A stretch of 64,000 bases of DNA from a virus (IMGVR_UViG_2517572207_000003); one strand, 5' to 3'; positions 6,486 to 60,632 are shown, counted from the first letter of the stretch. Notes: generated from the letters alone by a model not told the origin. A program made the numbers and translations.

Positions 6486-6513
6486 CTTTTACTAAAGCAC
6501 CCGTTAGTACAAT
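6486..6513 (-). repeat. palindromic cassette-boundary site 1
   Basis: CTTTTACTAAA-GCACCC-GTTAGTACAAT. Confidence 0.7.
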
Positions 6514-6623
6514 AAGTTCAATAAAAAAGACCATCAAAAATGATGGCCCTACTTCACAAACTATTACACAGTCATTAAAAAAATAAAGGACATTAAAGCT
6601 AATAAAATCCTTCAACTTTAATT

Positions 6624-7832
6624 TTATTGTTCCATAACATTTCTAACAAACAATTGCTTGTTTTTATGAGCAATTGTACTTACTATCGCAAGTAATAGCC
6701 CCGAAATAACGAATACAATTCTAATTCCTAACAAATCTGCTAATACTCCCATAACAAGAGAGCCAACGCCAAAAATCCCAGTTCCGATAGCACCTAACGA
6801 GGTATAAACAGTTGATAACTGTTCTTTTGACACACTAGTTTGTATAACCGTTTGTTGAGGAATTTTTTTAATTTGTCCAAAAAGCCCTACACAGAGCGAT
6901 AAAAGTAAGGAAATCATTGGAATGCTGTTTATGCTAAATAATATTGTGAATAAGAAACTTGCAAATGAACCGACAAAAATAAAGGTTCCTATTTTCTTTT
7001 CAACAAAAGAAGAAAATTTAATACAATAAGCACTTCCTAAAATCAGACCTAAAAAGTTAGCTCCATTGATAAATCCCCACCATTTTTCATCAACGTTCAA
7101 AGCCTCGTTGACAAACACATATAAAATAGCAGCTATCCAAACCGTTGCAGCAATTGTTTCCAAAAATTCTATCCAAGCAATCCTTCTTAATACTGGAGTG
7201 TTAGATAAAGTTTTCCAACCTTCTTTAATTTTTTCTAGTTTCCCTTTTTGCTCGGTTGTTTTATGGTTTACACTTTCTAAAAGGCAAAGTAATATGCTTG
7301 CAATTACAAATAAACATCCAACTAACCAAATAAGTTGTTGAGAACTCATAATAATTAGCAATGAACTTCCTACGAACCACATACCTGCTTGTATGGTCTG
7401 CGTAATTGTTTCTGCAATTCCATTAGCTTGAATTAGACATTCAGGTTTAACATAGTATGGAGTTAATGTCTGTCTTATTGGATTTGCACATCCGTCAAAA
7501 AAAGCAATCAATCCTATTATTAAAAAGATAAAATAATAATTAGCTGCTGTTAAACCAATTAACATAAACCCTAGAATAAAGAGTAAAATCGTCTTTACAA
7601 TTTGTGACCCAGCAAGTAACCATTTAAGATTTAATTTCTCAACCAAAAGAGGAGTCAGCAGACTGGATATAAACATAGAAGAAGCAATCGTAAATGGAAC
7701 AAACGATGCTGCAATTGCAGAACCTGTTAATACAAAAATTGTACTTATAACACCGACTATATATAATACATCGCCTATATTAGCGAGTGATTGACCCAAA
7801 AGTAATAAAGAAAAATTTTTATTCAATTTCAT
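6624..7832 (-). CDS. MFS transporter (DHA3/Mef-like efflux)
   Basis: 402 aa, ~12 TM, GQSLANIGD and GVLAD motifs. Confidence 0.88.
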   Translation of the reverse strand: MKLNKNFSLLLLGQSLANIGDVLYIVGVISTIFVLTGSAIAASFVPFTIASSMFISSLLTPLLVEKLNLKWLLAGSQIVKTILLFILGFMLIGLTAANYYFIFLIIGLIAFFDGCANPIRQTLTPYYVKPECLIQANGIAETITQTIQAGMWFVGSSLLIIMSSQQLIWLVGCLFVIASILLCLLESVNHKTTEQKGKLEKIKEGWKTLSNTPVLRRIAWIEFLETIAATVWIAAILYVFVNEALNVDEKWWGFINGANFLGLILGSAYCIKFSSFVEKKIGTFIFVGSFASFLFTILFSINSIPMISLLLSLCVGLFGQIKKIPQQTVIQTSVSKEQLSTVYTSLGAIGTGIFGVGSLVMGVLADLLGIRIVFVISGLLLAIVSTIAHKNKQLFVRNVMEQ

Positions 7833-7833
7833 T

Positions 7834-7912
7834 ATATATCCCCTATTATTTCATTCGAATTTGGCTTAATAGGGGTATATTAGATTGGACTATTCATTAA
7901 AATTTGACTCCT
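7834..7912 (-). promoter_or_regulatory. translational attenuator: leader peptide MNSPI (7880..7897) plus RBS-sequestering hairpin
   Basis: AGGAG-ATG AAT AGT CCA ATC TAA, then TATACCCCTATTA pairs with TAATAGGGGATATA covering the MFS RBS. Confidence 0.6.
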
Positions 7913-8092
7913 ATCATATATGGGACAAATCTGGGGATATAGATTTATCACAAATTTTGTATCATCGATTAATATTTAAATGAATTATAGCATATTTTTT
8001 CACTCCCATAGTAATTATATTCATACACCATTTTTTCCTTACGATTCTTTTATTTATATTCAGTAAATTCTCCATAAAATATAAAAATCCTA

Positions 8093-8121
8093 CTTCCGCT
8101 AAACTGCCCCGTTAGTTGAAT
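8093..8121 (-). repeat. palindromic cassette-boundary site 2
   Basis: CTTCCGCTAAA-CTGCCCC-GTTAGTTGAAT. Confidence 0.7.
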
Positions 8122-8330
8122 AAGAAGTTATGAGGGAGAATAAAACGGAAGTCCTTATTGTTATATAAGGTTGCTTTTGAAACATCAGCTTCACTTGCTA
8201 CACTGTTAAAGTTTATTTTCTCATTGGCTCTTATGAGCCTTTTAATGGCTTCATCTACCTTTTGAGAAGTAGTAGCCTTGCGATTAGTATGAATGGCTTT
8301 CAAGTGGGCAGAACGGTTATATTCAGCATT
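8112..8330 (-). pseudogene. TnpC-like (DUF6262) gene, truncated
   Basis: INFNSVASEADVSKATLYNN HTH; ends at site 2. Confidence 0.7.
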
Positions 8331-8339
8331 GCCTTCGTG

Positions 8340-9640
8340 GTTGTTTTAATATGAAGCTCATATTTTTGCTTATCTAACTCCGAAAAACCAACAGCTAAGT
8401 CTTACATGGGGTTTGATTGTCACCACAAGTGAGGCACGGGGGAGCTTCCATATGGGGGCAATTACCGTTCAAACGAGTGTGGCACCTTCCATAGGGGTTA
8501 TCCATCGCATTTAGTTTATGGTCTTGCCATAAAGCATCCAAAATATCTGTTGGTATATCTTCTCCTTCCTTAATTTCTTGAATTTCACCATTTAAATCGA
8601 AACTGAATACTCCTTACTTCACAGCGGATTCAAAGGCTTCTCTTTTGGTTTCATCTAATAGTTTAGCGTATCGCATTGTCATTTCTGGAGAAGCATGAGC
8701 TAAAAGCTCTTGAACAGTTAGAATATCTGCACCACTATTTATCATTTTCACTCCATAAGTATGTCGAAACTGATGCATCGCGAAATGAAAAAGATTGCCG
8801 TTTTCGTCAGTGATATTCACTTTTTTTGCTAATATATTTAATGCGCTATTAACCCAATTTTGCCCATATGGTTGTCCTTTTCGTTTTCCACGATATCGCA
8901 CAAAAATATAATCCTTTGGATTATTATCTTGATTACTATATTTTTTTGATTTATCGATTAGAACGGCAAGGATTCCTGCTAACTCTTCATCAATTGGAAT
9001 ACGATGTTCTTTCACATAGGTTTTTCTTATATCTGTTACTATAGAGTATTGCCCGTTTAGTTGAACTAAGCAGTCAAAGGTTAGTTCTAATGCATCGGAT
9101 ATTCTAAGCCCTGTTTTAAATGCCGCCCAAACTATCGGAACAATATCTTTATGTAATTCATCTAGGTGAGAAAAAAGCTGCTCTAAGACAAAATCCGGAA
9201 TGTAATAGATTTGGTCAACGGATTTCTCTCTCGGTTTAGGCTTATCTTCAGGAAAAATCAACAATCTTACATGTTTTTCAGAAGCTATTTCATACTCATA
9301 TCGTTGAATATCTTCAAGAAATTTTTGTATAGTGCCTAATGCTATTGATATATATGCTTCAGGATGTGCATTCTTTTGTTTCAGTTGAATTTGAATATTC
9401 ATGTAGAAATTCGATGTATTTTTCTATGTGCTTTCGCTTTAAAGCTTTTAAATCTTTCCATTTTGGTTCTAGTGTAAATACAAATGTAAAAAAAGATGGT
9501 AAAAACGTTATATAATTTAATGCCGTACCCCATGCGAATTTATTTTTACTAAGTAATCGTTGCTTAAAATACTTTTTGACTTGCTCACGAATGGTAGTAG
9601 GTATCTTTGAGAAATCAATATAATATTGGCATTAGTTTAG
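8340..9640 (-). pseudogene. Tn554 TnpB-like tyrosine recombinase, fragmented (main ORF 8614..9402)
   Basis: TGLRISD, HQFRHTYG, LLAHASPEMTMRYA catalytic motifs; flanking frames carry stops and frameshifts. Confidence 0.8.
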
Positions 9641-9919: not shown

Positions 9920-10291
9920 TCCTAGCTACGGCTGTAAGCTCCGCTTTGCTTAATCCGGACTTGTTGGACTCATAATCCATAACCGGCGGCAGATCGAAAG
10001 CCGCGATGCCTCCGACTGAATTAATGGCGCTCACAAAGTTTGCAGCTTCCTTTCGGGCATCCTCTGGCGTTTTCGCAGAATCGTCTAAACAGTGATAGGC
10101 CCCGATCAGGACTCCGACAGCTCGTGCAGCCTGTGATTACCGATGAATGTTTTGTCGCGGTATGACTTACCCTGACTGGCCTTAAGAAAGGCAAAGGAAA
10201 TGCCGCTTGCCTTGACCGCCTTCCAAACAATCTTTCCTTGATAACGGGATACGTCTATTCCTTAGGCATTACCTTTTTTCCTTGCTTGCAT
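9920..10291 (-). pseudogene. GH25 lysozyme-type endolysin fragment
   Basis: GIDVSRYQGKI.WKAVKASGISFAFLKASQG...GAYH...PPVMDYE with internal stop and frameshift. Confidence 0.75.
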
Positions 10292-10772
10292 CTTCCCTGT
10301 CCCCTTCCTGACTTCCGCTTTTACTTTTTAGAACCTCAACCGCTTGTCGGATCACTGGTGGTATTGGCGCTCCAAGCCTGCCCCCGTTTTCCAGAATCGA
10401 AAGCAGCTCATTTGCCATATAAAAATAGGCGACCACATCCCGGAATAGGTGCGAATCGCCTAAGACTCCATCAATCAGATGGGATACTGATACCATTGCA
10501 AAAATAAATACCTTTCGAGCGATACCGATAAGACCAATCTTGCTTTTTAAACCGGGCCCGGTTCCCTTCTTACCTTCTACGCCAGCGGTAAATAATCCAG
10601 TCACATAATCAATAATGACCAGAGCAAGTAACACCCCCAATACTCCCGACCACCCACCGTAAAAATACGTCACAGCGCTGCTTCCTAAAGCAGTACTGAA
10701 CTTAAAAACCTCCCACTTATCCACCTTGCTTCCCCCGTCTCTCCGTTCAGGAAACTTTTCCTGAGCTATCAT
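10269..10772 (-). CDS. phage holin (toxin secretion/phage lysis holin family); near-identical to 33430..33927
   Basis: IIDYVTG, RKVFIF, ANELLSILEN motifs; likely start GTG (VDKWE). Confidence 0.88.
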   Translation of the reverse strand: MIAQEKFPERRDGGSKVDKWEVFKFSTALGSSAVTYFYGGWSGVLGVLLALVIIDYVTGLFTAGVEGKKGTGPGLKSKIGLIGIARKVFIFAMVSVSHLIDGVLGDSHLFRDVVAYFYMANELLSILENGGRLGAPIPPVIRQAVEVLKSKSGSQEGDREDASKEKR

Positions 10773-10968
10773 CGTCTACTTTCTGTTCCTTTTCTTCCTG
10801 GGCCTGTATCTCTGCTAATGCATTTCCTACTGCTATATCCAACCCCTCAAGTATTTCTTTACGTTTATGTGGCTGTGAAGCAATTACAGCAGAAATGATC
10901 TCAGTTAAATCCTCAACAGGTCTGGTTAGATCCAGTTGTATGTCCAATGTGGATTTTATCTTTGCCAT
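10747..10968 (-). CDS. phage hypothetical protein (homolog of 33902..34123)
   Basis: MAKIKSTLDIQLDLTRP near-identical. Confidence 0.8.
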   Translation of the reverse strand: MAKIKSTLDIQLDLTRPVEDLTEIISAVIASQPHKRKEILEGLDIAVGNALAEIQAQEEKEQKVDDDSSGKVS

Positions 10969-11121
10969 GGGTTTCGTCACCCCCTCAAGACGCAAAATAA
11001 GCCCCTGATTTATCAGAGGCTTTCATACCTATATCTTAAATTGGTTTTATTACTATAACGGTGCGGATTTTAAACAGAAATATTGCTCAGCAAAAATAAG
11101 GTTGTAGAGTGACTATACATC

Positions 11122-11149
11122 TTTAAGCTAACAGGAAGTAAAGTTCCAA
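11122..11149 (+). repeat. palindromic cassette-boundary site 3
   Basis: TTTAAGCTAAC-AGGAAG-TAAAGTTCCAA. Confidence 0.55.
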
Positions 11150-11419: not shown

Positions 11420-12058
11420 ATGCCTTATCCAATGGTCCATTTTGCTATAGCTTTAGAACTTTGCTCGCGTACTCCATCTTCTAGTTTCTTAATTGGGAGT
11501 ATTGCTCCAGATGCTGTCCATGTAAGGGGAGATGTGACAAGAAGCGAAAAGGGTATTACACATTTTGTTTGTGAAGATAGATTCCCTAGTAGTGAGGTAC
11601 TTAAGGAAAGATGCCAGTATTATTTAAACCTTAATGTTGAGACTAACTGGACAGATTACATACTAGGGTATTTTGCCCATATCTATGCGGACATAAGATG
11701 GACGGAAACAGTCTATTCGAATTTTGAACGTGAGTATCAAGGAGAAAAAGATGAAATAAGAAAAATCTATAATATGGAAGCAAACCAAGTAGAATTTAAT
11801 TTAATCAAAAGAGAAGAATGGGCAGAAGATGTTCTCAACAAGCTCTATGTAGGAAATGCCTATAGTATTGAACCATTGTTAACACAAATTGAAGTAAATC
11901 AGTACCGAGATATAAAACTACAATGGCTACGTAATAAGAACAATGAACCCCAGATAACCCCAATTTATTTAAAGGTAGATGTGGTTAAGAGTTTTGTTAC
12001 AAAGACATCGCATGAACTTAACGACTTATATAAAGAATGGGGAATCGAGTCTCTATAA
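11420..12058 (+). CDS. zinc-dependent phospholipase C-like family protein
   Basis: MPYPMVH, GSIAPDA, THF, LGYFAHIYAD metal-ligand motifs. Confidence 0.75.
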   Translation: MPYPMVHFAIALELCSRTPSSSFLIGSIAPDAVHVRGDVTRSEKGITHFVCEDRFPSSEVLKERCQYYLNLNVETNWTDYILGYFAHIYADIRWTETVYSNFEREYQGEKDEIRKIYNMEANQVEFNLIKREEWAEDVLNKLYVGNAYSIEPLLTQIEVNQYRDIKLQWLRNKNNEPQITPIYLKVDVVKSFVTKTSHELNDLYKEWGIESL

Positions 12059-12068: not shown

Positions 12069-12097
12069 TTTAAGCTATCGTGACACAGCAGTTTAAT
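12069..12097 (+). repeat. palindromic cassette-boundary site 4
   Basis: TTTAAGCTATC-GTGACAC-AGCAGTTTAAT, 11 bp after the stop codon. Confidence 0.6.
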
Positions 12098-12245: not shown

Positions 12246-12701
12246 ATGAAGGCTGAAATTGAAAAAATACCGTCTTGTAGAATTGCATACATGAGACAGA
12301 TTGGTCCGTATGGAATTGCAAATTCACAACTAATGGAGAAATTTAAATACTGGGTTGAATCGAATAAATTATTTAATAATAAGTCTATTATCCTCGGCAT
12401 TGTCCAAGATAATCCTGCATTTGTGAAGCCGGAAAATTGTCGCTACGATGCATGTTTGGTTATTCCTGATGGTTACTGTGTTAATACTGATGAAGTAAGT
12501 CTAAGCAATATTAGTGGAGGAAGATACGCTGTTTTTAAGATAAATCATACAGCAGAAGCTGTTCAAAAGGCTTGGGGCGAAATATTTCTAGAGTTGAAAA
12601 ACCAAAAGTTCAGATTAGATGAAACCAAACCTATCTTGGAGCGCTATACAATTGAACTTATTAATAATCATCGTTGCGAAATTTGCGTTCCGATTCAATA
12701 A
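12246..12701 (+). CDS. GyrI-like small-molecule-binding protein
   Basis: IAYMRQIGPYG, DNP...CRYDAC, GGRYAVF, PILERY. Confidence 0.85.
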   Translation: MKAEIEKIPSCRIAYMRQIGPYGIANSQLMEKFKYWVESNKLFNNKSIILGIVQDNPAFVKPENCRYDACLVIPDGYCVNTDEVSLSNISGGRYAVFKINHTAEAVQKAWGEIFLELKNQKFRLDETKPILERYTIELINNHRCEICVPIQ

Positions 12702-12789: not shown

Positions 12790-13660
12790 ACGGTGACGGT
12801 TTTTTCAATGCGCTCAATAAGTTTTTGATCGTCGCCTGCCGCACCTATTCTTCTATCGATGTCAGTCAATGACTTTTCAGATTTTGTAATATCATTATTA
12901 AGTATTTCGATCAATTCCTCCACAGTCCCAGAGTGCTTTACAATTAGTTCCTTGGACCAATTGGTATGTGGGTTATTCTTCAAAGCCATTGCTTGTGACT
13001 GCTCTTCAACAACCACATATGAAGAAGGGGTTCCTGTTGTAATTTCAATAGTTTTCCCCTTCACCGCTAGGTTCGTCCCCAAAGATTCTGAAATCGGGCG
13101 CAAAGGTACATACGCTGTACCATCGACGGCAATAGCGTTTTCAAACAATGTTGTTCCATTTACGCTCACATTTTATTCCCCTAAAACCATCTTTCCAACT
13201 AGTGGAAATTTCTTGGTGATGGATCAAATGTAGCGTTCACAATTACATCATCGTACATATCACCTCTTAGTGAAGCAACATCGTTTCTCAACTCTCTGAT
13301 TGTTTCCCCGAGATTTTCAATAAAATCTTCAACTCCGAGCTTAAGCCCACTTACAGTAGCTTTAGTAAAATTAACCTCATTTTGAAAATAAACCATATTA
13401 TCCGTAGATTTTAATATATCCCCCACCCATATTATCTACATGAAATGAATTCAAGTCCCCAAAAATACGCCTACCCTCTTTTGCTGTACAGAATAAGGCA
13501 CCTGTAATAATACCGCCCTCTATCTCATTACCAATTAACTTACTGGCTCTAATAATCATCTTGGGCCCGTATCGCTGCTAATGCATTTCCTATCCTATAT
13601 CCAAACCTTAAGTATTTCTTTCCGGCGTGCTGGTTGCGAAGCAATGATAGCAGAAGATAG
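12790..13660 (-). pseudogene. remnants of prophage tail-region genes (homologs of 34444..35064, the 3' end of 35126..37288, and 33902..34123)
   Basis: VNGTTLFENAIAVDG, IVNATFDP.RN and nucleotide identity to 33966-34048. Confidence 0.7.
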
Positions 13661-13717
13661 TTGAAAAACAGTAATCAATCTAAGGAGCATGTCGACCTAC
13701 GCGAGGCTTCATCCTAA

Positions 13718-13745
13718 ATGAAACTAACGCAGGTTGTAGTTAAAT
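13718..13745 (+). repeat. palindromic cassette-boundary site 5 (overlaps the -35 of the lsa promoter)
   Basis: ATGAAACTAAC-GCAGGT-TGTAGTTAAAT. Confidence 0.65.
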
Positions 13746-14000
13746 TACTATTGTGATAAACTGGATGTAATTTGATGATGGGAGTTGAACGGATACATGT
13801 AGAACTTTCTTGCTTCGAGATCACGAAAAGAACGGACTCAGCGATTGGCTAGGGTCGTTTTATTTCGTCTCTGCAAGAAAGGTCTGCGTTTCGTTTGCGC
13901 TCCCTCTCCGGACAGTCATATGGCCCCCTTGTAATGGGGTCTTATTTCCTCGTATGGATTAGAGCCGCAAGAAAGCACCTTTCTTGCGGCTCTTTTTTAT
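13734..14000 (+). promoter_or_regulatory. sigmaA promoter and transcription attenuator leader of the ABC-F gene
   Basis: TTGTAG-17-TAAACT with extended TG; CTTTCTTGC (13805-13) / GCAAGAAAG (13873-81) alternative pairing; terminator 13961-13999. Confidence 0.75.
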
Positions 14001-14023
14001 TTCCAAACGAAAGGATGATTGCC

Positions 14024-15511
14024 ATGCCCGCCATTCAGGTAACCAATCTTACTTTTGCCTATCCAGGCAGCTATGACCCTATATTCGAAAATGTTCATTT
14101 TCAAATTGATACAGACTGGAAGTTGGGCTTTACAGGACGAAACGGTCGGGGTAAAACGACGTTCTTAAACCTGCTGCAGGGGAAGTACGAATACAGCGGT
14201 ACGATCTCCACACCAGTCGCCTTTGATTATTTTCCGTTTCCCGTCGAACATCCGGAGTATTTGACTTTAGATGTCGTCGAAGAGATCGTGCCAAGCTATG
14301 AGAACTGGAAGCTGATGCGTGAACTGAACCTGCTTAAGGTTTCAGAAGACGTGTTGTACCGACCATTCGAATCGCTGTCCCAAGGAGAACAGACGAAGGT
14401 ATTGCTGGCTGTGCTATTCATCCAAGACAATCGATTTCTGCTCATCGACGAGCCGACCAATCATCTCGATTTGCACGCACGCAAGCTTGTCGCCGATTAT
14501 CTGAATACGAAGCGTGGTTTTATTCTTGTTTCACACGACCGTGCTTTTCTCGACCGCTGCGTGGATCATATTCTGTCGATCAACAAAACGAATATTGAAA
14601 TCCAAAAAGGCAACTTCTCCAGCTGGTGGACGAACAAAACTCGCCAGGATACATTCGAAATGGCACAAAACGAAAAGCTGTACAAAGACATACAGCGTTT
14701 ATCAGCTTCCGCTAAACGTACTAGTAGCTGGTCTTTCGAGACCGAAAAATCGAAAAACGGCACACGAAATTCCGGTTCCAAACTTGACAAGGGGTACGTC
14801 GGACATAAGGCAGCCAAAATGATGAAACGCTCAAAATCCATCGAACAGCGGCAACACACTGCTTTAGAGGAAAAATCGAAACTGCTCCGAAATATCGAAC
14901 AGTCAGAAAGCCTTGCGATCTCTCAGCTCGTGTATCCCAAATCGGAATTGGCGATACTGGATCATGTTACGATTTACTACGGGGAAAGAGCAGTATGCAA
15001 GAACGTTAGTCTGATGATTGAACCAGGAGATCGGATTGCAATTTCAGGTCCAAATGGTTCAGGTAAGTCTAGCTTGCTTCACCTGCTCAACGCTGAGGAG
15101 CTATACTATACAGGTACGTTTCAACGGGATCCGCAGCTTCGCGTTTCCTATGTATCCCAGAATACTTCTGATTTGCGAGGTACGCTTTCCGATTATGCAG
15201 CAGAGCACAGAATTGACGAAAGCTTATTTAAAGCCGTGTTGCGTAAGCTAGATTTCGCCCGCATCCAGTTTGAGAAGGATATATCGGCGTTTAGCGGCGG
15301 GCAGAAGAAGAAAGTTCTGATCGCGAGAAGCCTATGTGAGGAGGCTCATCTGCATATTTGGGACGAACCGCTCAACTTTGTTGACGTGATTTCCCGGATG
15401 CAAATTGAGGAGCTGCTGCTTGAATACACGCCCACCATTGTATTCGTAGAGCATGATCGGGAATTTCATGACCGGGTCGCCACGAAAACGATTGAACTCG
15501 GTGGGGATTAG
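14024..15511 (+). CDS. lsa: Lsa-family ABC-F ribosomal protection protein
   Basis: two ABC domains without TM; TFAYPGSYD.IF...DTDWKLG..GRNGRGKTT and DKGYVGHKAAKMMKR signatures; 495 aa from ATG 14024. Confidence 0.88.
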   Translation: MPAIQVTNLTFAYPGSYDPIFENVHFQIDTDWKLGFTGRNGRGKTTFLNLLQGKYEYSGTISTPVAFDYFPFPVEHPEYLTLDVVEEIVPSYENWKLMRELNLLKVSEDVLYRPFESLSQGEQTKVLLAVLFIQDNRFLLIDEPTNHLDLHARKLVADYLNTKRGFILVSHDRAFLDRCVDHILSINKTNIEIQKGNFSSWWTNKTRQDTFEMAQNEKLYKDIQRLSASAKRTSSWSFETEKSKNGTRNSGSKLDKGYVGHKAAKMMKRSKSIEQRQHTALEEKSKLLRNIEQSESLAISQLVYPKSELAILDHVTIYYGERAVCKNVSLMIEPGDRIAISGPNGSGKSSLLHLLNAEELYYTGTFQRDPQLRVSYVSQNTSDLRGTLSDYAAEHRIDESLFKAVLRKLDFARIQFEKDISAFSGGQKKKVLIARSLCEEAHLHIWDEPLNFVDVISRMQIEELLLEYTPTIVFVEHDREFHDRVATKTIELGGD

Positions 15512-15592: not shown

Positions 15593-15621
15593 ATTGAACT
15601 AAAGGCACACGATAGTTCAAT
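15593..15621 (+). repeat. palindromic cassette-boundary site 6
   Basis: ATTGAACTAAA-GGCACAC-GATAGTTCAAT. Confidence 0.8.
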
Positions 15622-15819
15622 CGAACATCGGCAGTCTAGGATTTTATTTTTTCGTCCATGGCTGCCGATGGTTTTATTGAAGACAGTTTAATAGTTATCT
15701 CACTAAGACTAAGAAGCTTATATTATTTTACAGTGGGTTTTGCTTCTTCTACTCTACTCTCACTGTCCATTATGGGAAATTCCGCTTCAAATGCTATTGC
15801 AAAACGGACAACAGGATCA

Positions 15820-16146: not shown

Positions 16147-16652
16147 TGCTGCTTTTGCTCACTTTCTTAATATTGCTCATCCTCCTCCCAACAGATAAGA
16201 AACAATAAAAAAACACAAGCAATTACGCTTGTGTTTTGATGCAGCCTATATCAGATCACTCTCAAAGAGACAAGACCCTGAAACTGTACCACGTAAGGCT
16301 TCAAGCTCATCCAGAGCTTTCTTTAAATCACCGTCCATCGCTCATATCCTATTTTCATTAAGCACATTCCCCTCTGTACAATTCATGATTACTTTAGAAT
16401 AATCCGCAAAAACGTTGCGCTTGCCATGCAGGTCCAGTCGCGAAACAGCCCCGGCAATTTCCGTAACTCACCGTGTGGAAAACGACACCCCCATTGAAAA
16501 GGATGCCTCAACACTATGAATAAAGTAACAAATTTCAGGATAAAAAATCATAGTTCCTAATGTCAGAAGAAGCCAAAGTATTAGACTGACCTTAGAAATT
16601 GAAACAGCGACAACTAAGACGAGGAAATAGGGTCCTTGATTGTCGCTATTGC

Positions 16653-16681
16653 ATTGAACTAACGTATCCCGTTAGTTCAAT
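16653..16681 (-). repeat. palindromic cassette-boundary site 7 (perfect arms)
   Basis: ATTGAACTAAC-GTATCCC-GTTAGTTCAAT. Confidence 0.85.
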
Positions 16682-16695: not shown

Positions 16696-17514
16696 CTAAA
16701 ATCCAAACTCTGTTACTCTTTCAAGCCACTCACGCATAAGTGACTCAAATAATAGAGTCTGTTCAATCTGAAGATTATGGCCTGCTCGATCTAGAACGGC
16801 AAAGGTTGCTCTAGGATAATTGTCTAAAATTCTAAAAGCATCTATGTAACCAACAACTGCATCTTGTCGCCCAAGAGTAAATACTGTTGGTTTATCGAAA
16901 ACTAATTCATCTATATTGGTGGAAAATCCATAGTTTCTTTGAATCTTGCTAAGAAAATCGTAGTCAGCGATCTTACAACCTGCCATGATCTCTTCTGAAT
17001 ACCTTTTCCAATTATATTCATTGAGAACGACTTGATTTGCGCTAAAATCACTTACTTGCTCTTCACTTAAGGTGTCCATAAACTCGCGATCACTATGAAC
17101 AACAAAATGCTCGGGAAGTATTCTTCTTTTGTGTTCAGGAATAATTAATGGGCAAATCAGTGCAGCCCCACCAATACGATCTTTATGTCTATTAATTATT
17201 CCTCTTGTAATATATCCACCGTATGATTCACCTGCTATGAGATAATCTTGGTTTGGGACAAGAGTTTCAATAAAATTTATAACTGCTTCTAGCATATCAT
17301 CTGAATTACATATTTGATCGTAATCCTTTGTTTGTCCCATTCCAGGCAGGTCAAGATAGATACGACGCCAATTGGAATTATCTTCAAATATCGGTTCCAT
17401 ACACCCACTCATTAACCGATGGTCTGGTGTAAAACCATGGATCATTATAATTGGTTTGCCTTTACCAATTTCCTCGTAATATATATTGGCATTCTTGACT
17501 TTACAATATGGCAT
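16696..17514 (-). CDS. alpha/beta hydrolase
   Basis: HGFTPD, DLPGMG, GESYGG nucleophile elbow, AGHNLQIE. Confidence 0.9.
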   Translation of the reverse strand: MPYCKVKNANIYYEEIGKGKPIIMIHGFTPDHRLMSGCMEPIFEDNSNWRRIYLDLPGMGQTKDYDQICNSDDMLEAVINFIETLVPNQDYLIAGESYGGYITRGIINRHKDRIGGAALICPLIIPEHKRRILPEHFVVHSDREFMDTLSEEQVSDFSANQVVLNEYNWKRYSEEIMAGCKIADYDFLSKIQRNYGFSTNIDELVFDKPTVFTLGRQDAVVGYIDAFRILDNYPRATFAVLDRAGHNLQIEQTLLFESLMREWLERVTEFGF

Positions 17515-17644
17515 ACAGACTCCTCCAAAATTGAGTTATTATTATAATATTCTTACACTAAAGAAGAATCTACATGTTTTATCAAGCAAACCAGATCTCC
17601 TTTCCGTTTCGTTTTGATTATATACGCATATATAATATATGTAA

Positions 17645-17658
17645 AGAACACTTGTTCC
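17645..17658. promoter_or_regulatory. putative LexA (Cheo) box
   Basis: AGAAC-ACTT-GTTCC. Confidence 0.5.
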
Positions 17659-17675
17659 CTATTCTTGTTTTCGGA

Positions 17676-17703
17676 GTTAAACTAACCTGCCCGTTACTTC
17701 AAT
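17676..17703 (-). repeat. palindromic cassette-boundary site 8
   Basis: GTTAAACTAAC-CTGCCC-GTTACTTCAAT. Confidence 0.8.
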
Positions 17704-17783
17704 GAAAAAAAGCAGCCCCTCATGAACTGCCCTACTGCTAGTCACTTCAACAATAGGATGAGTTCATACAAGGGCTACCCCAT

Positions 17784-18053
17784 TTACCAAGTAATCCAAC
17801 CGCTCGTTCGTTTGTAACTGTGCAGGATCTCGTATTCCTCACTACGCATCAGTCGTTTCATTTTTGTTCTATACAGCCGATAATCATCTTTTCTTGCTAC
17901 TTTACATTCTTTGTTGTAATGAACACTCTTGATTCCTTTACGGAAATCCTTAAGCTTCTCTTTTCTTGGATCTTTGGGCTTATTATTGATCTCCAGACTA
18001 CGCTGTTTCTCATCTTCCCAGGATTGAATCTCTTCCCGTGTAAACATCTTCAT
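17784..18053 (-). CDS. basic hypothetical protein
   Basis: ORF between sites 8 and 9; start uncertain. Confidence 0.55.
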   Translation of the reverse strand: MKMFTREEIQSWEDEKQRSLEINNKPKDPRKEKLKDFRKGIKSVHYNKECKVARKDDYRLYRTKMKRLMRSEEYEILHSYKRTSGWITW

Positions 18054-18176: not shown

Positions 18177-18204
18177 TTATAACTATTCTTCCCGTTTTAC
18201 GCCT
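18177..18204 (-). repeat. degenerate cassette-boundary site 9
   Basis: TTATAACTATT-CTTCCC-GTT then diverges. Confidence 0.4.
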
Positions 18205-18320: not shown

Positions 18321-19238
18321 TTATGCATAGGTATACTCCGGTCCCAATCGTTCGATAATTCGATCCAACTGTCTGGTTAGATAAGGCGAAACGTCACCAA
18401 TGCCAGACACTGCTTCTAACAAGGGAAAGGATTGCCCACCCCACGGGCCTTGTGGATCAAAGACTTGTCTACCGATTCGCAAGCCTTCTGTTTCCCTGAA
18501 GATGTTCAATCGTTCCAATCCTTCAATAAGCAGCCCGACCGGCAGCGTTTTGTTCCTACGTCGGGACCATTCTGCCAAGAAGGACATGCCACGTAATATA
18601 TCATATTCAAAAAACCTCGGAAAACAAGGCTTCAGCCATTCCATATCGATGACACTTCTATTTTGTTTAGAACATACAAGACGATGCTCAATTAAATAAC
18701 GTGCGCCTTCATCTAAGAAAACGACTTCCTGTTCAGTAAATTCACGGTCTGTATGCCATAAGATAGCTTCAAGCGGAGGAAGTGTCGAAACAATAGAGCT
18801 CTTTTTAGAATGAATATAAGCTTCAGGATCGCAGTTCAGTCCGCCATCAGGTAACTGATGCTTTAAGAGCCATTCGCGAATCCAAGGCAGTTCCTTGTCC
18901 AAATCACAGCCATACGCCATTAGAATCATATAGTATACGGCAAGTTCACAATGGCAGCAATCCATCTTCATCTTATCACTTTCACTTGTTGGATGGTCAT
19001 CGGGGAATATGATGAAGGTGGGCCAAACCTGAGTTTCGAGTAAATATTTTGCTCCAGTAATAGCAGACTCGGGAATTAGTTTCACCTCACCCATTTCATA
19101 AAGAGCAGCCATATGCCACCAAGCTCCATCCCATTTTCGACGGCTGCACTCGCCGTGAGTCATCCCCAAATGCGGAGTAGATTCAAGGAACTGTATAGAT
19201 TCTTCGATTGCTAAACGAATATTTTGATTTGCTTCCAT
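18321..19238 (-). CDS. hypothetical protein with prenyltransferase/squalene cyclase-like repeat
   Basis: WLLKHQLPDGGLNC QW-like motif; FPRFFEYDILRG. Confidence 0.7.
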   Translation of the reverse strand: MEANQNIRLAIEESIQFLESTPHLGMTHGECSRRKWDGAWWHMAALYEMGEVKLIPESAITGAKYLLETQVWPTFIIFPDDHPTSESDKMKMDCCHCELAVYYMILMAYGCDLDKELPWIREWLLKHQLPDGGLNCDPEAYIHSKKSSIVSTLPPLEAILWHTDREFTEQEVVFLDEGARYLIEHRLVCSKQNRSVIDMEWLKPCFPRFFEYDILRGMSFLAEWSRRRNKTLPVGLLIEGLERLNIFRETEGLRIGRQVFDPQGPWGGQSFPLLEAVSGIGDVSPYLTRQLDRIIERLGPEYTYA

Positions 19239-19333: not shown

Positions 19334-19361
19334 ATTAAACTATCCTGCCCGTTAGCTTAAT
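19334..19361 (-). repeat. palindromic cassette-boundary site 10
   Basis: ATTAAACTATC-CTGCCC-GTTAGCTTAAT. Confidence 0.8.
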
Positions 19362-19449
19362 GAGGCATCGTCAGAATATTACTTTATTTTTCAGTTTAGA
19401 ACTTTATTTTCTTCTGACACCTATAATAAAGACCGCAAAGGCTTAAGCC

Positions 19450-19670
19450 CTTTGCTTCTGGCATTCTAAGTCCAATTTCTCCTTCTTGGTTTCGCCCCCG
19501 ACCATAGTCGATCATCACAAAATCCAATGTTCGGTTGACAGACTTTTTGCTAAATTTTCTTTGACCTTGCGTCTTTTGTCAGCGAATGTTGTGGCTGATA
19601 TACCATGAATACCTTTTTTATACTCTGCTCATATACTGTTGAGCTTTTAGATACAAAAGCTTTGCAGCAA
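19450..19670 (-). pseudogene. 3' remnant of a late transcription regulator homologous to 60720..61352
   Basis: ATTFADKRR...NRTLDFV.IDYGRG.N.EGEIGLRMPE shared. Confidence 0.75.
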
Positions 19671-55232: not shown

Positions 55233-56663
55233 TCAACCAAATGAAAATACATTTTTGAATTTAATATTTGCAAAAGATAATACAAATGCGTCGGCCCTAT
55301 CCGGTGAGGGTAGGCCGCGCTTTTTCATATCCTCTTTTCGTTCTAAAAATATCTTTCCGTTGCTACCCATCCGCCATTTTCGGGAAGTGAGCTGCGTTAT
55401 AAGTTTCTCGTCATCTGGCAATTGCAGTTCACCCGGCTTGCCAAGCACATAGTTGCTCATATTAGCCTCAAGCATTTCTTTGACATGTCCCCACTGTTCA
55501 GCCCCTAGATTCCCATAATGACCGTCTTCCGCTGCTGATCCATTGTTAACTGGAATGATGGTGTAGCCTAGACTTTTCTCCTCATTAATCTCATTCAATC
55601 TATCTGTTACAGCTCCACCTATTCCACTATCATCAATTCTTATTTCTACTTCGTCCATTTCTGTACGCTCTGCCTTTACATCATCAACCAGGCGTAATAC
55701 CCAGCCTGTGGTTGTCATAGTGTCCTGCTTGTGGTGGAAATGAGTCTTTACCACCTTGCCTCCCATACGTGCGTACATGGTTGTCTCATCGTCTCCAAAA
55801 CGTGCAACGTCAACACCTACAAATAGCTTTGTTCCAGAAGGTTCAATTTTAACTTCATCTTTGGCAAATTCCGCAGCTTCCAGAGAGATGAATGTATCAG
55901 ATTCACCACGGGGAAACTCGCCTTCTACACGAACGCGCCATACATCGCTTCCCTCTCCATATTTCCGTTTAAGCATAGCGATGTTTTCTTTACTCGTTCT
56001 CGGACTGTCCAAACAGGATACCTTACGTGTTTTATAATCAGATCTATCCTTATTGTGCGAATCATAAAAAACACCCGACGTTTTTGTCGGGTTTCCACAC
56101 ATCAGTATTTTATTGAACTCACCCGACAACGTACCTAAAATGGCTTCCATGATTGGATCAGCAACACCCGATGCCTCATCCACAACAAATAGCATGTAGT
56201 CCTCATGAAAGCCTTGCATATTTTCAGGCTTGGTTGCTGTCCGAGCTGTAGCGAACCATCGTTCCTCATAATTTTTCATGTATATTTTGGTCTTAGTCCA
56301 CTTAAGGATTCGTTTCAGCACCGGACTTTTAGATTGCCATTTATTTATCTCAGCCCATAACACGTCATGTAGTTGCTGCCTTGTAGGAGCTGTACAAATT
56401 ACCTTTGGATATGGGAAACACGACAAGAACCATAGAGCTGTTGCCGCTTCTAATCCTGTTTTTCCTACGCCTTGACCTGAACGTACTGAAACACGAGGAT
56501 TATTAGCTAAATCCATTAGAGTGCTTGCCTGCCAATCATCAGGATAGAACTTAAGCATCTCTTGACAGAACAATGTGGGATTCTTGCGATACTCAGGAAT
56601 CCTTTTCTTGAATGCTTGAAGTCTCCGTTTCGTCTCCGGTGAGTCCTTCGTCTTCATCGCCAA
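55233..56663 (-). CDS. terL: terminase large subunit
   Basis: SGQGVGKT Walker A, VVDEASG Walker B, GNPT, GVDVARFGDD, SPDRADA. Confidence 0.95.
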   Translation of the reverse strand: MAMKTKDSPETKRRLQAFKKRIPEYRKNPTLFCQEMLKFYPDDWQASTLMDLANNPRVSVRSGQGVGKTGLEAATALWFLSCFPYPKVICTAPTRQQLHDVLWAEINKWQSKSPVLKRILKWTKTKIYMKNYEERWFATARTATKPENMQGFHEDYMLFVVDEASGVADPIMEAILGTLSGEFNKILMCGNPTKTSGVFYDSHNKDRSDYKTRKVSCLDSPRTSKENIAMLKRKYGEGSDVWRVRVEGEFPRGESDTFISLEAAEFAKDEVKIEPSGTKLFVGVDVARFGDDETTMYARMGGKVVKTHFHHKQDTMTTTGWVLRLVDDVKAERTEMDEVEIRIDDSGIGGAVTDRLNEINEEKSLGYTIIPVNNGSAAEDGHYGNLGAEQWGHVKEMLEANMSNYVLGKPGELQLPDDEKLITQLTSRKWRMGSNGKIFLERKEDMKKRGLPSPDRADAFVLSFANIKFKNVFSFG

Positions 56664-57876
56664 CCACCGCCTCTACCCAATCGTCAATTAAATCGTCTTC
56701 TGAATTTCCTTCTCCAGTGACCTTTGCCCTTTCAAGCTCAAGTTTCTCACGTTGCATCTTAAGTTTCTCGTCTTCAACCATCCGTTTATGTTTGTCTGGA
56801 AGCAGATCCATGTATTTAGTTAGCACGTCCAATGCCTTGGTTTTGTCGTGTAGCTTTACGCTCACTCCATCCTTACCCTGCTTGACTTCTGAAACCAGAG
56901 TTCCATCAATTTCATCGCTGTTTTTAAAAGAGACATAATTGTATCTGTACTTCTTCGTTTCTCCAGTGTCAGGATCAAACACAGGATCTCCTTCTAAGCC
57001 AAGAACATCTTCTTCCTTTTGACCGAATTCTACGTAATCCGTAATGTCTGCGAAAGCAATCTTCATGTACTCCATTAGAACTCGCTGAGCATTTAAACCC
57101 ACCTCGTCGATCATTGTTTCCTTGTGCTGCCGAATAATGTTTTGGATTTCAACTTTCTTCAACAGAGCGAAACCAATCTGATAGGCAGTTTTCTTACTGT
57201 ATCCCGCCGCAATCGCTGACCTGGTAGCGTTGAAGTCTCGAAGGTATTCATAAGTGAATATCCTTTGCTTAGGCGTTAATCCATCCTCATCGGGAATTTC
57301 CGGTTCAGGTTCTTCAACAACCGTTGGAGCACTCTGTACTTTTTTGGAACGTTCCATATTACCGGAGCGTTCCGGTACTTTTTTCGGAGCGCTCCGTATT
57401 TTTGGAGTTTCCCCCAGCTCTTTTGATAGTGCATCAACAGTAAGCAGAGTAGCATATACTTCCCTCGGCTTATCACCTTGATATGTACCAATGAATTTGC
57501 GCCGCTCCATTTCATCAATCAGTCGGGCCGCTCTGCTATAACCTATCCTCATTCTTCTCTGTAATAAAGAAACCGAGGCTTGTTTGGCCTCGGCTACAAT
57601 TTGGACAGCTTTTAGAAAAAGATCGTCTGGATATGATGTTGTATCTTCATCTTTCTTTGCAGGTTCATTTTTTTTATCAGTTTCATCTTCATCGGAACGT
57701 TCCGTATGTTTCGCTTCTCCAATCAAACTCTCCCACTTATCTTTAGCCTTCCATCCTCTTACCGTACCTTCAGATACACTAAGCTGAGATGCTATATCTG
57801 TGAGACGTATGTTGCCGGAACTGGCTTTGTATAAATCAAATGCTTCGTCCCGTTTAGGATCTCTCTTTCGTCCCAT
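56593..57876 (-). CDS. terS: terminase small subunit with internal FtsK/SpoIIIE gamma domain
   Basis: N-terminal HTH (TVRGWKAKDKW); ASVSLLQRRMRIGYSRAARLIDEME...KPREV gamma motif; LTPKQRIF..EYL.DFNATRSAIAAGYS TerS domain. Confidence 0.88.
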   Translation of the reverse strand: MGRKRDPKRDEAFDLYKASSGNIRLTDIASQLSVSEGTVRGWKAKDKWESLIGEAKHTERSDEDETDKKNEPAKKDEDTTSYPDDLFLKAVQIVAEAKQASVSLLQRRMRIGYSRAARLIDEMERRKFIGTYQGDKPREVYATLLTVDALSKELGETPKIRSAPKKVPERSGNMERSKKVQSAPTVVEEPEPEIPDEDGLTPKQRIFTYEYLRDFNATRSAIAAGYSKKTAYQIGFALLKKVEIQNIIRQHKETMIDEVGLNAQRVLMEYMKIAFADITDYVEFGQKEEDVLGLEGDPVFDPDTGETKKYRYNYVSFKNSDEIDGTLVSEVKQGKDGVSVKLHDKTKALDVLTKYMDLLPDKHKRMVEDEKLKMQREKLELERAKVTGEGNSEDDLIDDWVEAVVGDEDEGLTGDETETSSIQEKDS

Positions 57877-58131
57877 ATCTTATTATTCACCCCTTTTGAT
57901 AATGTATCTGAAGCTAAGGAAAAGTTTCCTGAACAAATAAAAAAGCACCTATTAAGGTGCTAGGTGCTAAATCTAGCTTTATCGCATCATTGAAATCACG
58001 TAAAAATAATTTTTTATATCGACATTTCTTTACATATTTCCCGAGTTTTTTAATTTTGATAGTTGTATAATCCTCTTAATGGTAGCTGGAAACTATCCGG
58101 CTATCAAAAAAGTGAGAGGAGATTTTTAAGA

Positions 58132-58635
58132 ATGAAAAAGTTGGTTTCTATTTTGCTCACATTTGCCCTTTTGTTATCCGTGTCCGTAACAGCATTTGCA
58201 GAAGAAGCAACACCTACTAACCAGCAAGATGCAAAATACTCCATCAGTGTTGGTGATTCCGACATCGAATTGGCTAAAGGAGAAACTGTTGAAATACCTC
58301 TTACATTAATCCCTAAAGAAGGAACGGTTCATCCCAATGTTGATTTCCCTGGCACTGGGGGAATCCTTTCCTTAACTGCTGGGGCCAATTATGTCTTTTA
58401 CAGAATAACTCCGTCGGTTCCAATAGATAATTTCACTGGAATAATGAGTATCACAGATTTGACTTCTGGATTAAGTAATGGGAATGCAATTGTATCTGGA
58501 TTAGCAGGTCAAGTTGCTTATTCTGGTTATAGGAATCATACGTACCGCGCTTCTTTGGACGGTACAGGCACTTTACTTGGAATCCCTTATATTAATACTA
58601 ACCCAAATGGGATTACTTGGACACATAATTGGTAA
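58132..58635 (+). CDS. secreted hypothetical protein (moron)
   Basis: signal peptide MKKLVSILLTFALLLSVSVTAFA; RBS GAGGAG. Confidence 0.75.
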   Translation: MKKLVSILLTFALLLSVSVTAFAEEATPTNQQDAKYSISVGDSDIELAKGETVEIPLTLIPKEGTVHPNVDFPGTGGILSLTAGANYVFYRITPSVPIDNFTGIMSITDLTSGLSNGNAIVSGLAGQVAYSGYRNHTYRASLDGTGTLLGIPYINTNPNGITWTHNW

Positions 58636-58691
58636 TATTAGTTGAATTATATAAAGAAGCTTACAGTCATTGACTATAAGCTTCTTTTCTA

Positions 58692-59144
58692 TTATAGAGT
58701 TGGTTTAAACAAATAGTGTAAGAAAAGACTTGTAACAGTTAAACTATATTTTTTGTCTATTGAGATCGACTTTGGGTCTTTCATAAATTGCTGTACATCA
58801 TTCGTGTCTAACTTGGCATACAGTGCTATGGTTTCATATGAAATACCCCAATGCTGATTCAAAATATCAATAACGCCCTTTACTCGCTCACTTTCGTCTA
58901 TCATTTGGATTCCATTAGCGAGCATAAAAAGCAAACTATCGAAATTCAGTTTAGAATGCGAATTACCTAATTCAGAAAAATCATTCTTGCCATTTAAATA
59001 TCCCAAAATTACGTCTTCTTCAATTCCAGAAATTTTACTTAGGGTATCTGTAGTTATCTTGTAGACTTCCAAAACTCGTTTTAACAGCGCTCTAGGCCCA
59101 TCTTCACCTTCGGACCCGTTGCTTGTGTCCCCATATAATTTCAT
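58692..59144 (-). CDS. HTH domain protein
   Basis: two helix-turn-helix-like segments. Confidence 0.6.
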   Translation of the reverse strand: MKLYGDTSNGSEGEDGPRALLKRVLEVYKITTDTLSKISGIEEDVILGYLNGKNDFSELGNSHSKLNFDSLLFMLANGIQMIDESERVKGVIDILNQHWGISYETIALYAKLDTNDVQQFMKDPKSISIDKKYSLTVTSLFLHYLFKPTL

Positions 59145-59591
59145 TAAAGAAAACCCCTTTCATATAAATTCTTCTCCGACACGATGTACGCTAACTGATA
59201 TATCATCCTTTTATTCCAGTTCCATACCTCCACTTCCAAATGAATAATTATATATATCATTATAACCAAAAGATGGGGATTTTTGTTGCATTGATTCATT
59301 TCATCTAATCATACAAATTTAGAAAATTGTCCTGATTTAACTTAGCAAAAAGAAGGAAATAGATTCCCATCTGCCTCGTTATTATAGATTGATGAGGTTG
59401 AGGAAAAGCTTCCCGAACAAATAAAAGAGCAACGATTTCACGCTGCTCTACTGTAGTGATCAGTAATTTATAAAATGCGGTTACCGCTAATCCGCCATGC
59501 CTGGAATAGGCCTTCAATGGACATCCTTCTTGCTCCGGGTTTATATTACCCTCTGAGTCCTGTCTCCGATTTAGTTTTAGTTTTGGAAAAA

Positions 59592-59846
59592 TTACAGAAG
59601 TTGATCAGCTAGCGCTTTAAGGCCACTTGGTACAGCAATTTGTTTGCCGTCATGTTCATTGCCGTTTACATAAGCTGTGTCTTTGTCTGCATAGTAAACT
59701 ACACCTTTACCGCCGATAATCGGGAAGACGCTTTCGTCGTAATCCAGATTTGTACCCACATACTTGCCATGCTTAGCTGCTTCACTTTCCGATGGATGGA
59801 GATGAAGAATTTTTGTGTTGTCCAAGTAAGCGTAACTATGTGCCAT
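59592..59846 (-). CDS. hypothetical protein
   Basis: RBS AGGAGG, 84 aa. Confidence 0.7.
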   Translation of the reverse strand: MAHSYAYLDNTKILHLHPSESEAAKHGKYVGTNLDYDESVFPIIGGKGVVYYADKDTAYVNGNEHDGKQIAVPSGLKALADQLL

Positions 59847-60029
59847 GTTTATTGCCTCCTAAAATAGTTTTAATTTGTTCCTGAATAAAGTGTAAATCCT
59901 TTCTACTCCGTACCTACTACGGATTTGCTAGTTCCTACTATCAGCAGAAAATAAAGTGGTAGACTGAGCCTAGAAATTGAAAACAGCGACAACCAAGGAC
60001 GAAAAAAAGTCCTAGACTGTCGCTGTTCC

Positions 60030-60058
60030 ATTGAACTAACGTTCCCCGTTAGCTTAAA
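60030..60058 (-). repeat. palindromic cassette-boundary site 11 (contains the NUDIX stop codon)
   Basis: ATTGAACTAAC-GTTCCCC-GTTAGCTTAAA. Confidence 0.85.
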
Positions 60059-60518
60059 CCATATTCTCCAGATACTTGTTGAATAAGGCTAATGAGTATT
60101 GCTTTTGAGAGATCAAATTTTCTGTAATCTGTTTAATTACTTCTTTATCGCGTAGCTCAAGTGAATCTGGAATCAACAGATCCGTAGGTGCTATCCATTT
60201 CGAATCAATGATCTCCGTTGTATCTAACTGAAGAGAACCACCGATGATTTCACCAATAAAATGAAATAAAATAACCTGGTGATTTGTACTACTAATGAAG
60301 TTATAAATACCTGTAGTGGCTGTAAGTTTAACGTCGTAGCCGGTTTCTTCTTTTGCTTCTCTACGTGCCGCCTCTAGAATATCTTCATCATATTCGATTC
60401 TCCCTGACGGGAAGTTCCATGTATTCTTAACAGATGCTTTGTTTTCTTTGATCATAAGCAGCTTATCTTCATGTATTATCGAAACACTCACAACCAATAC
60501 AATCCCGTTTTGAGTCAC
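60054..60518 (-). CDS. NUDIX hydrolase
   Basis: Nudix box G-x5-E-x7-REAKEETG. Confidence 0.92.
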   Translation of the reverse strand: MTQNGIVLVVSVSIIHEDKLLMIKENKASVKNTWNFPSGRIEYDEDILEAARREAKEETGYDVKLTATTGIYNFISSTNHQVILFHFIGEIIGGSLQLDTTEIIDSKWIAPTDLLIPDSLELRDKEVIKQITENLISQKQYSLALFNKYLENMV

Positions 60519-60561
60519 GCTAAAAAACCTCCATAGTTAGAAAATTAACGTCACTATTATT

Positions 60562-60575
60562 AGAACATATGTTCC
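60562..60575. promoter_or_regulatory. putative LexA box upstream of NUDIX gene
   Basis: AGAAC-ATAT-GTTCC. Confidence 0.55.
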
Positions 60576-60604
60576 GATTTTTGTAAATGACTGGATCACC
60601 GCTC

Positions 60605-60632
60605 ATTATACTAACCTGCCCGTTAGCTTTAT
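60605..60632 (-). repeat. palindromic cassette-boundary site 12
   Basis: ATTATACTAAC-CTGCCC-GTTAGCTTTAT. Confidence 0.8.

Follow-up and report, generated by a model that had tools for sequence, protein, structure and literature searches.

Integrons, the textbook gene-capture device, and clusters of attC sites lacking integron-integrases (CALINs) consist of accessory cassettes, mostly of a single gene each, that are arrayed in one orientation with recombination sites between them. In these arrays, which can be tens of kb long, stop codons overlap the 3' site, a tyrosine recombinase is the enzyme, and enzyme-less genomes carry orphan arrays. Integrons are reportedly nearly absent from Bacillota. 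In pdif modules of Acinetobacter plasmids and in integrative mobile elements exploiting Xer (IMEX), 28-bp Xer-type sites with an 11-6-11 layout bracket single accessory or resistance genes in varied contexts, and the recombinase is encoded outside the module; pdif modules are bounded by sites in inverted orientation and use host XerC/XerD on dif-like sequences. In XerS/difSL, XerH/difH and archaeal XerA/dif, one Xer-family protein is genetically linked to its own site of ~28-31 bp. Here, we analysed a 64,000-nucleotide stretch of DNA attributed to a virus (IMGVR_UViG_2517572207_000003; hereafter the window), which corresponds to G000:C1:3180114-3244113 in a genome of two contigs (chromosome C1 and plasmid C2). 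Recurring palindromes in the window separate accessory genes. These palindromes are probably the core sites of a system of Xer-type site-specific recombination in which accessory genes are packaged as cassettes. A conserved 280-aa Xer-type recombinase of related genomes is its most likely enzyme, and the arrays of G000 would be orphans.

The system shares with integrons and CALINs all of the features listed above. An earlier reading of the sequence alone (the sequence-only reading) called the cassettes integron-like, and co-oriented, site-bounded arrays are indeed present, as in contig C110 of genome G100. The parts differ, however: the recombinase is Xer-type and scores below the cut-offs for IntI, a tyrosine recombinase with its own extra domain; the sites are 28/29-bp palindromes of two types, whereas attC sites are imperfect palindromes of 57-141 bp, folding into a single hairpin (R''-L''/L'-R') with extrahelical bases; and no attI/Pc platform, which in integrons adjoins intI and drives promoterless cassettes, was found. 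Moreover, the cassettes are self-promoted, some carry regulators, a terminator stands at each junction, and two sites enclose the recombinase gene as a unit of its own. By this comparison, "integron-like" is an analogy of design only, and the system is not an integron. In contrast to pdif modules, the flanking sites are in direct orientation, the arms do not resemble the dif-like palindromes of the genome, and spacers of 6 and 7 nt are tied to a dedicated single recombinase. Single-recombinase Xer systems resolve chromosome dimers at one site per replicon, whereas tens to hundreds of sites partition accessory DNA here. Full-text literature searches including motif strings, with supplements not covered, found no published description of the sites or of the recombinase system.

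The sequence-only reading had listed 12 palindromes as one family of 11-6/7-11 sites. The claimed sequence was present at all 12 places, but the strict pattern (11-6/7-11 consensus, ≤3 mismatches) recovered only 4 sites. We therefore rely on a refined scoring, in which arms and spacer were scored separately against an oriented consensus of 28 positions (arms plus spacer; scores are given as x/28). Ten of the 12 palindromes scored at least 20/28 (6486, 8093, 11122, 12069, 15593, 16653, 17676, 19334, 60030 and 60605), confirming that the palindromes are real. Of the two weak ones, the site at 18177 scored 15/28 when read as B-like on the minus strand, yet is a true homology boundary, and the site at 13718 sits within a conserved unit carrying an lsa-like ABC-F gene. 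With at least 18/22 arm matches, 24 sites were found in the chromosome compared with 2 in the reversed-sequence control. The family proved not to be a single class. Each site consists of two 11-bp inverted arms flanking an oriented spacer, and the spacer divides the sites into two types: type B has the 6-nt spacer GGGCAG, and type A has a 7-nt spacer, scored in the form GGGnAAC and typically GGGAAAC or GGGATAC, with GGGACAC and GAGGAAC seen as further variants. Genome-wide, 28 A-type and 22 B-type sites scored at least 21/28, compared with 1 and 0 in the reversed controls; these ~50 sites of G000 lie in the chromosome and on the plasmid as well as in an intact prophage and a prophage remnant.

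Type B is placed 5' of a gene, upstream of a promoter-like element, and type A lies at or just past the stop codon, with a hairpin after most A sites. Site orientation matches the direction of the flanked gene throughout the window. Three earlier observations stood: spacer asymmetry tracks gene direction, the downstream site lies at the stop codon (the NUDIX stop, 60054-60056, falls inside the site at 60030-60058), and a stem-loop usually follows that site. The claim that each pair of sites encloses one accessory gene was borne out in part, as single-gene cassettes occur but some intervals hold two or more open reading frames (ORFs).

The same arrangement was found far beyond the window. The B core (≤2 mismatches) was present in 79 of 93 genomes of the genus, with the backwards control nearly empty, and some genomes held dozens of copies almost all on one strand (44 versus 2 in G076). 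Across the order, 237 of 401 genomes, belonging to 32 of 63 genera, contained the 18-nt B core (≤1 mismatch); none of the 22 genomes of genus g15 did. The array in G100:C110 spans 54 kb and comprises 40 sites, of which 39 share a strand; they delimit units of one to four genes, often a regulator plus an enzyme. Read in gene sense, the array contains 13 short junctions from A to B and, as gene segments, 13 of type B-to-A, 4 B-to-B and 3 A-to-A. A junction between units runs from A (29 bp) through a GC-rich hairpin with a T run (~41 bp) to B (28 bp); the distance from A start to B start was 60-74 bp in 22 junctions, and the junction sequence is conserved between genomes. Within the ~98-bp composite of A, terminator and B, arms matched their own partner at 9-10/11 positions and the other site's arm at 7-9/11 (consensus, by eye). 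The repeating unit of the arrays is thus B, promoter, gene or genes, A and terminator hairpin. Promoter-like hexamers lie 30-60 nt downstream of B sites, own promoters were also seen by eye in cassettes other than that of the hydrolase described below, and lone B sites without a hairpin were found between cassettes as well. G100:C110 also contains a 115-bp B-to-A unit without a gene (concatenated loci L017-L020, 46998-47140), which may be an emptied cassette slot. In another genome (L051, G073:C39), an IS200-type TnpA-like ORF at 17420-17893 forms a unit between two B sites.

The sequence-only reading saw no dedicated recombinase in the window, expected one to act in trans and advised a search for co-occurring tyrosine recombinases. 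That search yielded a conserved gene encoding a 280-aa Xer-type recombinase, which in related genomes is a unit between an A and a B site. With a truncated tyrosine-recombinase ORF that immediately follows an A site in G100:C30 as query, we obtained matches (E ≤1e-25) in 103 of 401 genomes of the order, and none in genus g15 (0/22 genomes). Identity was 80-95% over the C-terminal 127 residues, even between families. Among 20 recombinase loci, 15 had a site scoring at least 19/28, 14 had a site just upstream of the gene, and 6 had a B site within ~60 nt past the stop. By eye, an A-like site was seen ~65-70 nt before the ATG at 16 of 18 loci (one of the others was partial and one had none), and most loci viewed showed CAACTAAAGGGCAG-type B sites after a short hairpin. 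As the gene is flanked by A and B sites, it fills the A-to-B slot that elsewhere holds only a terminator. B sites were present in 96 of 103 recombinase-positive genomes versus 141 of 298 without a match (Fisher odds ratio 15, uncorrected for kinship).

The protein carries PF02899 (SAM-like N-terminal) and PF00589 (catalytic) domains, placing it in the Xer family. It scored 183-186 bits on the XerD, XerC and XerA models, under every Xer equivalog cut-off, and far lower on the integron-integrase models (TIGR02249, 84 bits with a cut-off of 265; NF011946, 53 bits with a cut-off of 435). Its closest solved relatives are 4a8e and 1a0p (XerC-like, XerD and XerA proteins), and public records, mostly from Paenibacillus, label it only as "tyrosine-type recombinase/integrase" or "XerD". 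The best relative among plasmid records was 52% identical and among phage records 34%. A Peribacillus plasmid carries a 52%-identical homologue followed by a B-like site with the spacer GGGGCAG, indicating that the pairing of recombinase and site extends outside the order. No copy was found in G000, where the best tblastn match is a XerC-like gene of 27% identity; therefore, the cassettes of G000 are orphans. By analogy, these orphan arrays are comparable to integron CALINs. The expectation of an enzyme acting in trans accordingly held for both the window and the whole genome, except that an unrelated tyrosine-recombinase fragment (8614-9402) is in view.

Several other genes were considered as movers and set aside. 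For an HUH (IS200-type) transposase, the plasmid has a single broken copy; the site closest to it is weak (19-20/28) and ~1 kb away. Three serine recombinases are encoded in the genome, none beside an array. The integrase fragment of the window, with its neighbouring DUF6262 ORF, has homologues in just 3 of 93 genomes of the genus. No integrase subfamily is common to the arrays of G000, and no integrase genes were found within five arrays totalling 258 kb. The Xer-like genes near sites in G076 and G073 (L053 and L051) are 44-47% identical to a resident 323-aa Xer-like gene of G000, and no A or B site directly flanks them.

We then compared cassette boundaries between species. The NUDIX, hydrolase, 89-aa, 305-aa and lsa-like ABC-F units all occur in differing contexts in other species, and homology begins and ends in the sites; this is the test that the sequence-only reading had proposed. 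An 88% identical copy of the NUDIX cassette lies within another array in G010; homology starts in the A site, with the gene-side arm identical and the outer arm and flank different. In a genus-wide comparison with a 14.4-kb query, in which the sites flanking the hydrolase lie at query positions 10854-10882 and 11877-11904, hydrolase matches in G005, G009, G069 and G052 ran from 10854-10861 to 11891-11907. Matches to the 89-aa unit ran from 11877-11899 to 12377-12397, and those to the 305-aa gene from 12389 to 13561-13565. In the alignments at B, 4-5 of the 11 outer-arm positions differ and the spacer, inner arm and interior are identical or nearly so; at A or the next B, identity stops in the spacer or outer arm. 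Summed over the 8 boundaries with a recognisable B site (L028, L029, L031, L033 and L035-L038), the outer 30 nt matched G000 at 85/240 positions, the outer arm at 56/88, the spacer at 45/48 and the inner arm at 83/88. Over all 15 boundary rows, the corresponding fractions were 0.30, 0.52, 0.73 and 0.72, in an automatic comparison that was noisy and whose ungapped flanks were shifted by indels.

The lsa unit starts at a B site, includes lsa, A and terminator, and reaches as far as the outer arm of the next B. Its left B site, which G045 and G060 have in intact form, is decayed in G000 at ~13640-13666; homology to both genomes starts in the spacer of the intact site, and the matches of the unit in other species end at 15698-15702. 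The DNA of the lsa-like gene is 93-95% identical in 10 other species. After the holin region of the prophage remnant, G045 and G060 carry the lsa unit at a B site, and other cassettes occupy this position in G000. Different cargo also occurs between shared flanks, as the three-cassette array is flanked by stretches (window positions 16551-16675 and 19334-19653) that match those around the NUDIX cassette. In contigs of isolate X16, array homology starts at 16668, 17694 and 19346, in or beside the spacers of three sites. As a separate observation, most genomes of the genus also hold a paralogue of the lsa-like gene that is ~69% identical.

The sites, cassettes and flanks of the window are as follows (coordinates, strand, description and basis).

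6486..6513, minus strand: B-like site, 20/28, downstream of the major facilitator superfamily (MFS) gene (consensus score)
6624..7832, minus strand: MFS transporter gene, cargo (Pfam MFS_1)
8093..8121, minus strand: site scoring 20/28 (spacer GGGGCAG) that overlaps the DUF6262 stop codon (consensus score)
8112..9402, minus strand: cargo remnant, a 262-aa tyrosine-recombinase fragment (8614-9402) plus a 63-aa DUF6262 ORF (Pfam)
11122..11149, plus strand: B-like site, 20/28, first site after the holin region of the prophage remnant (consensus score)
11420..12058, plus strand: 212-aa cargo gene, weak match to Zn-dependent phospholipase C (E 0.0033, below cut-off)
12069..12097, plus strand: A-like site, 20/28, 11 nt past the stop of the 212-aa gene (consensus score)
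12246..12701, plus strand: GyrI-like / Cass2 cargo gene (family match)
13640..13666, plus strand: decayed B site with half site GATAGTTGAAA (13656-13666), where the lsa unit has its true left boundary (homology start versus G045, G050 and G060)
13718..13746, plus strand: weak site-like palindrome inside the lsa unit, no boundary in comparisons (sequence, alignments)
13895..15511, plus strand: lsa-like ABC-F cargo gene with two ABC_tran domains (Pfam)
15593..15621, plus strand: A site, 24/28; a terminator-like hairpin (15622-15676) comes next, then a decayed B-like site (15677-15702) (score, alignment)
16575..16652, plus strand: outer flank of the three-cassette array, hairpin plus ~20-bp repeat (core AAAGTATTAGACTG), homologous to 59929-60029 (comparison)
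16653..16681, minus strand: A site, 27/28, the genome's best copy, 15 nt past the hydrolase stop (consensus score)
16696..17514, minus strand: alpha/beta hydrolase cargo gene with its own promoter-like TTTACA-17-TATAAT at 17645-17617 (family match, promoter call)
17676..17703, minus strand: B site, 25/28, preceded in gene sense by a terminator-like hairpin at 17733-17709 (score, terminator call)
17784..18053, minus strand: 89-aa basic ORF, a unit between two B-type sites (cross-species matches)
18177..18204, minus strand: decayed B-like site, spacer GGGAAG, with an intact B site at this place in G059 (L038) (alignment)
18321..19238, minus strand: 305-aa cargo gene without family match (family searches)
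19334..19361, minus strand: B site, 24/28, outer flank 19372-19405 with two ~20-bp repeat copies, homologous to 60605-60932 (score, comparison)
59929..60029, plus strand: outer flank of the NUDIX cassette, hairpin plus two ~20-bp repeat copies (59953 and 60006) (repeat search)
60030..60058, minus strand: A site, 25/28, containing the NUDIX stop codon (consensus score)
60054..60518, minus strand: NUDIX hydrolase cargo gene within the prophage (Pfam)
60605..60632, minus strand: B site, 23/28, outer flank with two inverted ~20-bp repeat copies (60644 and 60663) (score, repeat search)
15632-15645, 16575-16588, 19372-19405, 59953-60019 and 60644-60676 of the window, with C2:129403-131730 and C2:338339-344134 on the plasmid: ~20-bp repeat copies

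Of the genes labelled in the sequence-only reading, the "prenyltransferase-like" one at 18321..19238 gave no family match for its 305-aa product, and the "Zn-PLC-like" 212-aa gene gave a weak, sub-threshold match. Within the genus, the 89-aa ORF, matched in more than 20 genomes, is the most widespread unit of the window array; its very basic product has no family in Pfam, PHROGs or NCBIfam, and a second copy lies on the plasmid just after a B site (C2:342039-342308). The ~20-bp repeat (core AAAGTnnTAGACTG) has 23 exact copies compared with 2 in the control, and one to three tandem copies lie outside the phage and plasmid cassettes of G000, inverted on the two sides. The repeat may serve as an accessory binding site or belong to a terminator variant.

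The window contains a prophage remnant, with a holin at 10269-10772, and an intact-looking prophage at ~21-59 kb with terminase, portal, tape measure and tail genes; the NUDIX cassette is placed just past the packaging genes of the latter. Within it, the terminase small subunit gene (56593-57876, minus strand) has an FtsK/SpoIIIE-like stretch at residues 57-172. Directly left of the first site (6486), a gene at 5820-6416 (plus strand) encodes a DUF4231 / SLATT-domain protein of a family linked to defence effectors. The stop of the 63-aa DUF6262 ORF abuts a site, and the full-length relative of the neighbouring recombinase fragment in G102 has 720 residues. Elsewhere in the chromosome (G000:C1:2999009-3009641), a second and different cassette-like row was observed, in which five dif-like palindromes separate gene modules. 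These palindromes have 11-bp arms ending in ...ATGTAAACT/ATGTTAACT and 5-nt centres, and they flank the 323-aa Xer-like recombinase gene (G000:C1:3008248-3009219).

The boundaries could also have arisen without a dedicated enzyme, if the junction of A, terminator and B were a repeat resembling MITEs (miniature inverted-repeat transposable elements) or repetitive extragenic palindromic (REP) sequences that ends transcription and insulates genes, with cassettes shuffled by ordinary or phage-encoded homologous recombination at these ~100-bp repeats. Repeats of this kind are non-coding units with terminal inverted repeats and target-site duplications, and they are spread through core intergenic regions. 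The junction is non-coding and roughly palindromic, and its hairpin with T run is canonical and kept in sequence between genomes; terminator-like calls adjoin sites in the window, and sites occur without a recombinase match in many genomes. The sites lie among accessory genes. Against this explanation, identity jumps at the edge between outer arm and spacer instead of rising gradually over the repeat, and hairpin-less B sites occur alone between cassettes. Each palindrome has its own internal symmetry (A arms have AGCT where B arms have CAAC/GTTG, by eye), the oriented spacer is kept across families of the order, and the recombinase gene occupies the A-to-B slot. Target-site duplications were not seen at 22 junctions (by eye, without systematic search). 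We consider this explanation unlikely.

Alternatively, the sites of G000 could be used by resident enzymes, either a host XerC/XerD-type pair, which the sequence-only reading proposed to test, or the 323-aa Xer-like protein, in the same way as pdif modules and IMEX use host Xer. The 11-6-11 layout fits dif-type sites, Xer-like genes are present, and the sites of G000 are well preserved (27/28 at 16653) without a dedicated enzyme. Against this, the arms are unlike the dif-like palindromes that flank the resident 323-aa gene, and the best resident relative is just 27% identical to the dedicated recombinase. In addition, the sites follow the dedicated recombinase across the order, and genus g15 has no B site in any of its 22 genomes. 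The dedicated paralogue, whose gene lies between A and B in relatives, is the likely enzyme, and use by resident enzymes appears improbable. Finally, it is very improbable that the palindromes are transcription-factor operators or RNA hairpins controlling expression or stability of the flanked genes, with cassette-like variation being incidental: B sites do lie 30-60 nt upstream of promoter-like hexamers and A sites would be transcribed as 3' hairpins, but the same core occurs upstream of promoters, at stop codons and after terminators (where it would be untranscribed), the flanked genes are all unrelated accessory genes, homology breaks within the sites, and an Rfam scan of the window at gathering score returned 0 families.

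Several points weigh against site-specific recombination by the 280-aa enzyme. Reads gave no sign of recombination: the three-cassette array is complete in all four other sequencing runs (X8, X16, X4 and X12), none of the contigs bridges a cassette, and the sole joint is a 170-nt skip inside the hydrolase gene (X16), so that no loss at strain level was seen. An "empty" site with repeats on both sides was searched for in G000 and not found. G000 retains its ~50 sites without the recombinase, B sites are also present in 141 of the 298 genomes that gave no match, and the site-rich genomes G076, G102, G015, G007 and G054 gave no match, in a search that scored 7 candidates per genome. The association of sites and recombinase is uncorrected for phylogeny. 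At the boundaries, 7 of 15 rows have no recognisable site at the 5' end, and the crossover point within a conserved site is finer than the resolution of BLAST ends. Moreover, A and B spacers are unequal in length and A spacers vary, which fits poorly because tyrosine recombinases strictly need identical overlap regions.

On balance, the breakpoints within sites support the proposal of the sequence-only reading, a site-specific cassette system in Bacillales with an enzyme in trans. We infer that the recombinase would bind the sites and carry out strand exchange between like sites (B with B, A with A) at the edges of their spacers, whereby the segments between them would be excised, inserted or swapped. 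The cassettes of G000 would then be mobile only if the recombinase arrives from outside or another enzyme substitutes for it. A bolder and more doubtful possibility is that the arrays of Paenibacillus and relatives carry out natural recombinase-mediated cassette exchange. Heterospecific B (6-nt) and A (7-nt) sites would alternate, so that B-to-A gene segments and A-to-B terminator or recombinase segments might swap independently among chromosome, plasmid and phage without loss by simple excision. The junction of A, terminator and B would then be a gutted A-recombinase-B unit, and prophages might be vehicles carrying cassettes, including the lsa-type resistance gene, between species.

The design is that of integrons, built from other parts, namely an Xer-type enzyme, sites that are simple double palindromes, and cassettes that drive their own expression. 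The system extends widely, with the B core in 237 of 401 sampled genomes of the order, arrays of tens of kb, and cassettes on prophage and plasmid; the window is of interest as a case of orphan arrays and phage-borne cassettes. If the proposed mechanism is confirmed, genome engineering in Gram-positive bacteria would gain a compact pair of recombinase and site, perhaps with two orthogonal site types, and the system would account for the movement of accessory genes, including the lsa-like ABC-F gene, among soil Bacillales.

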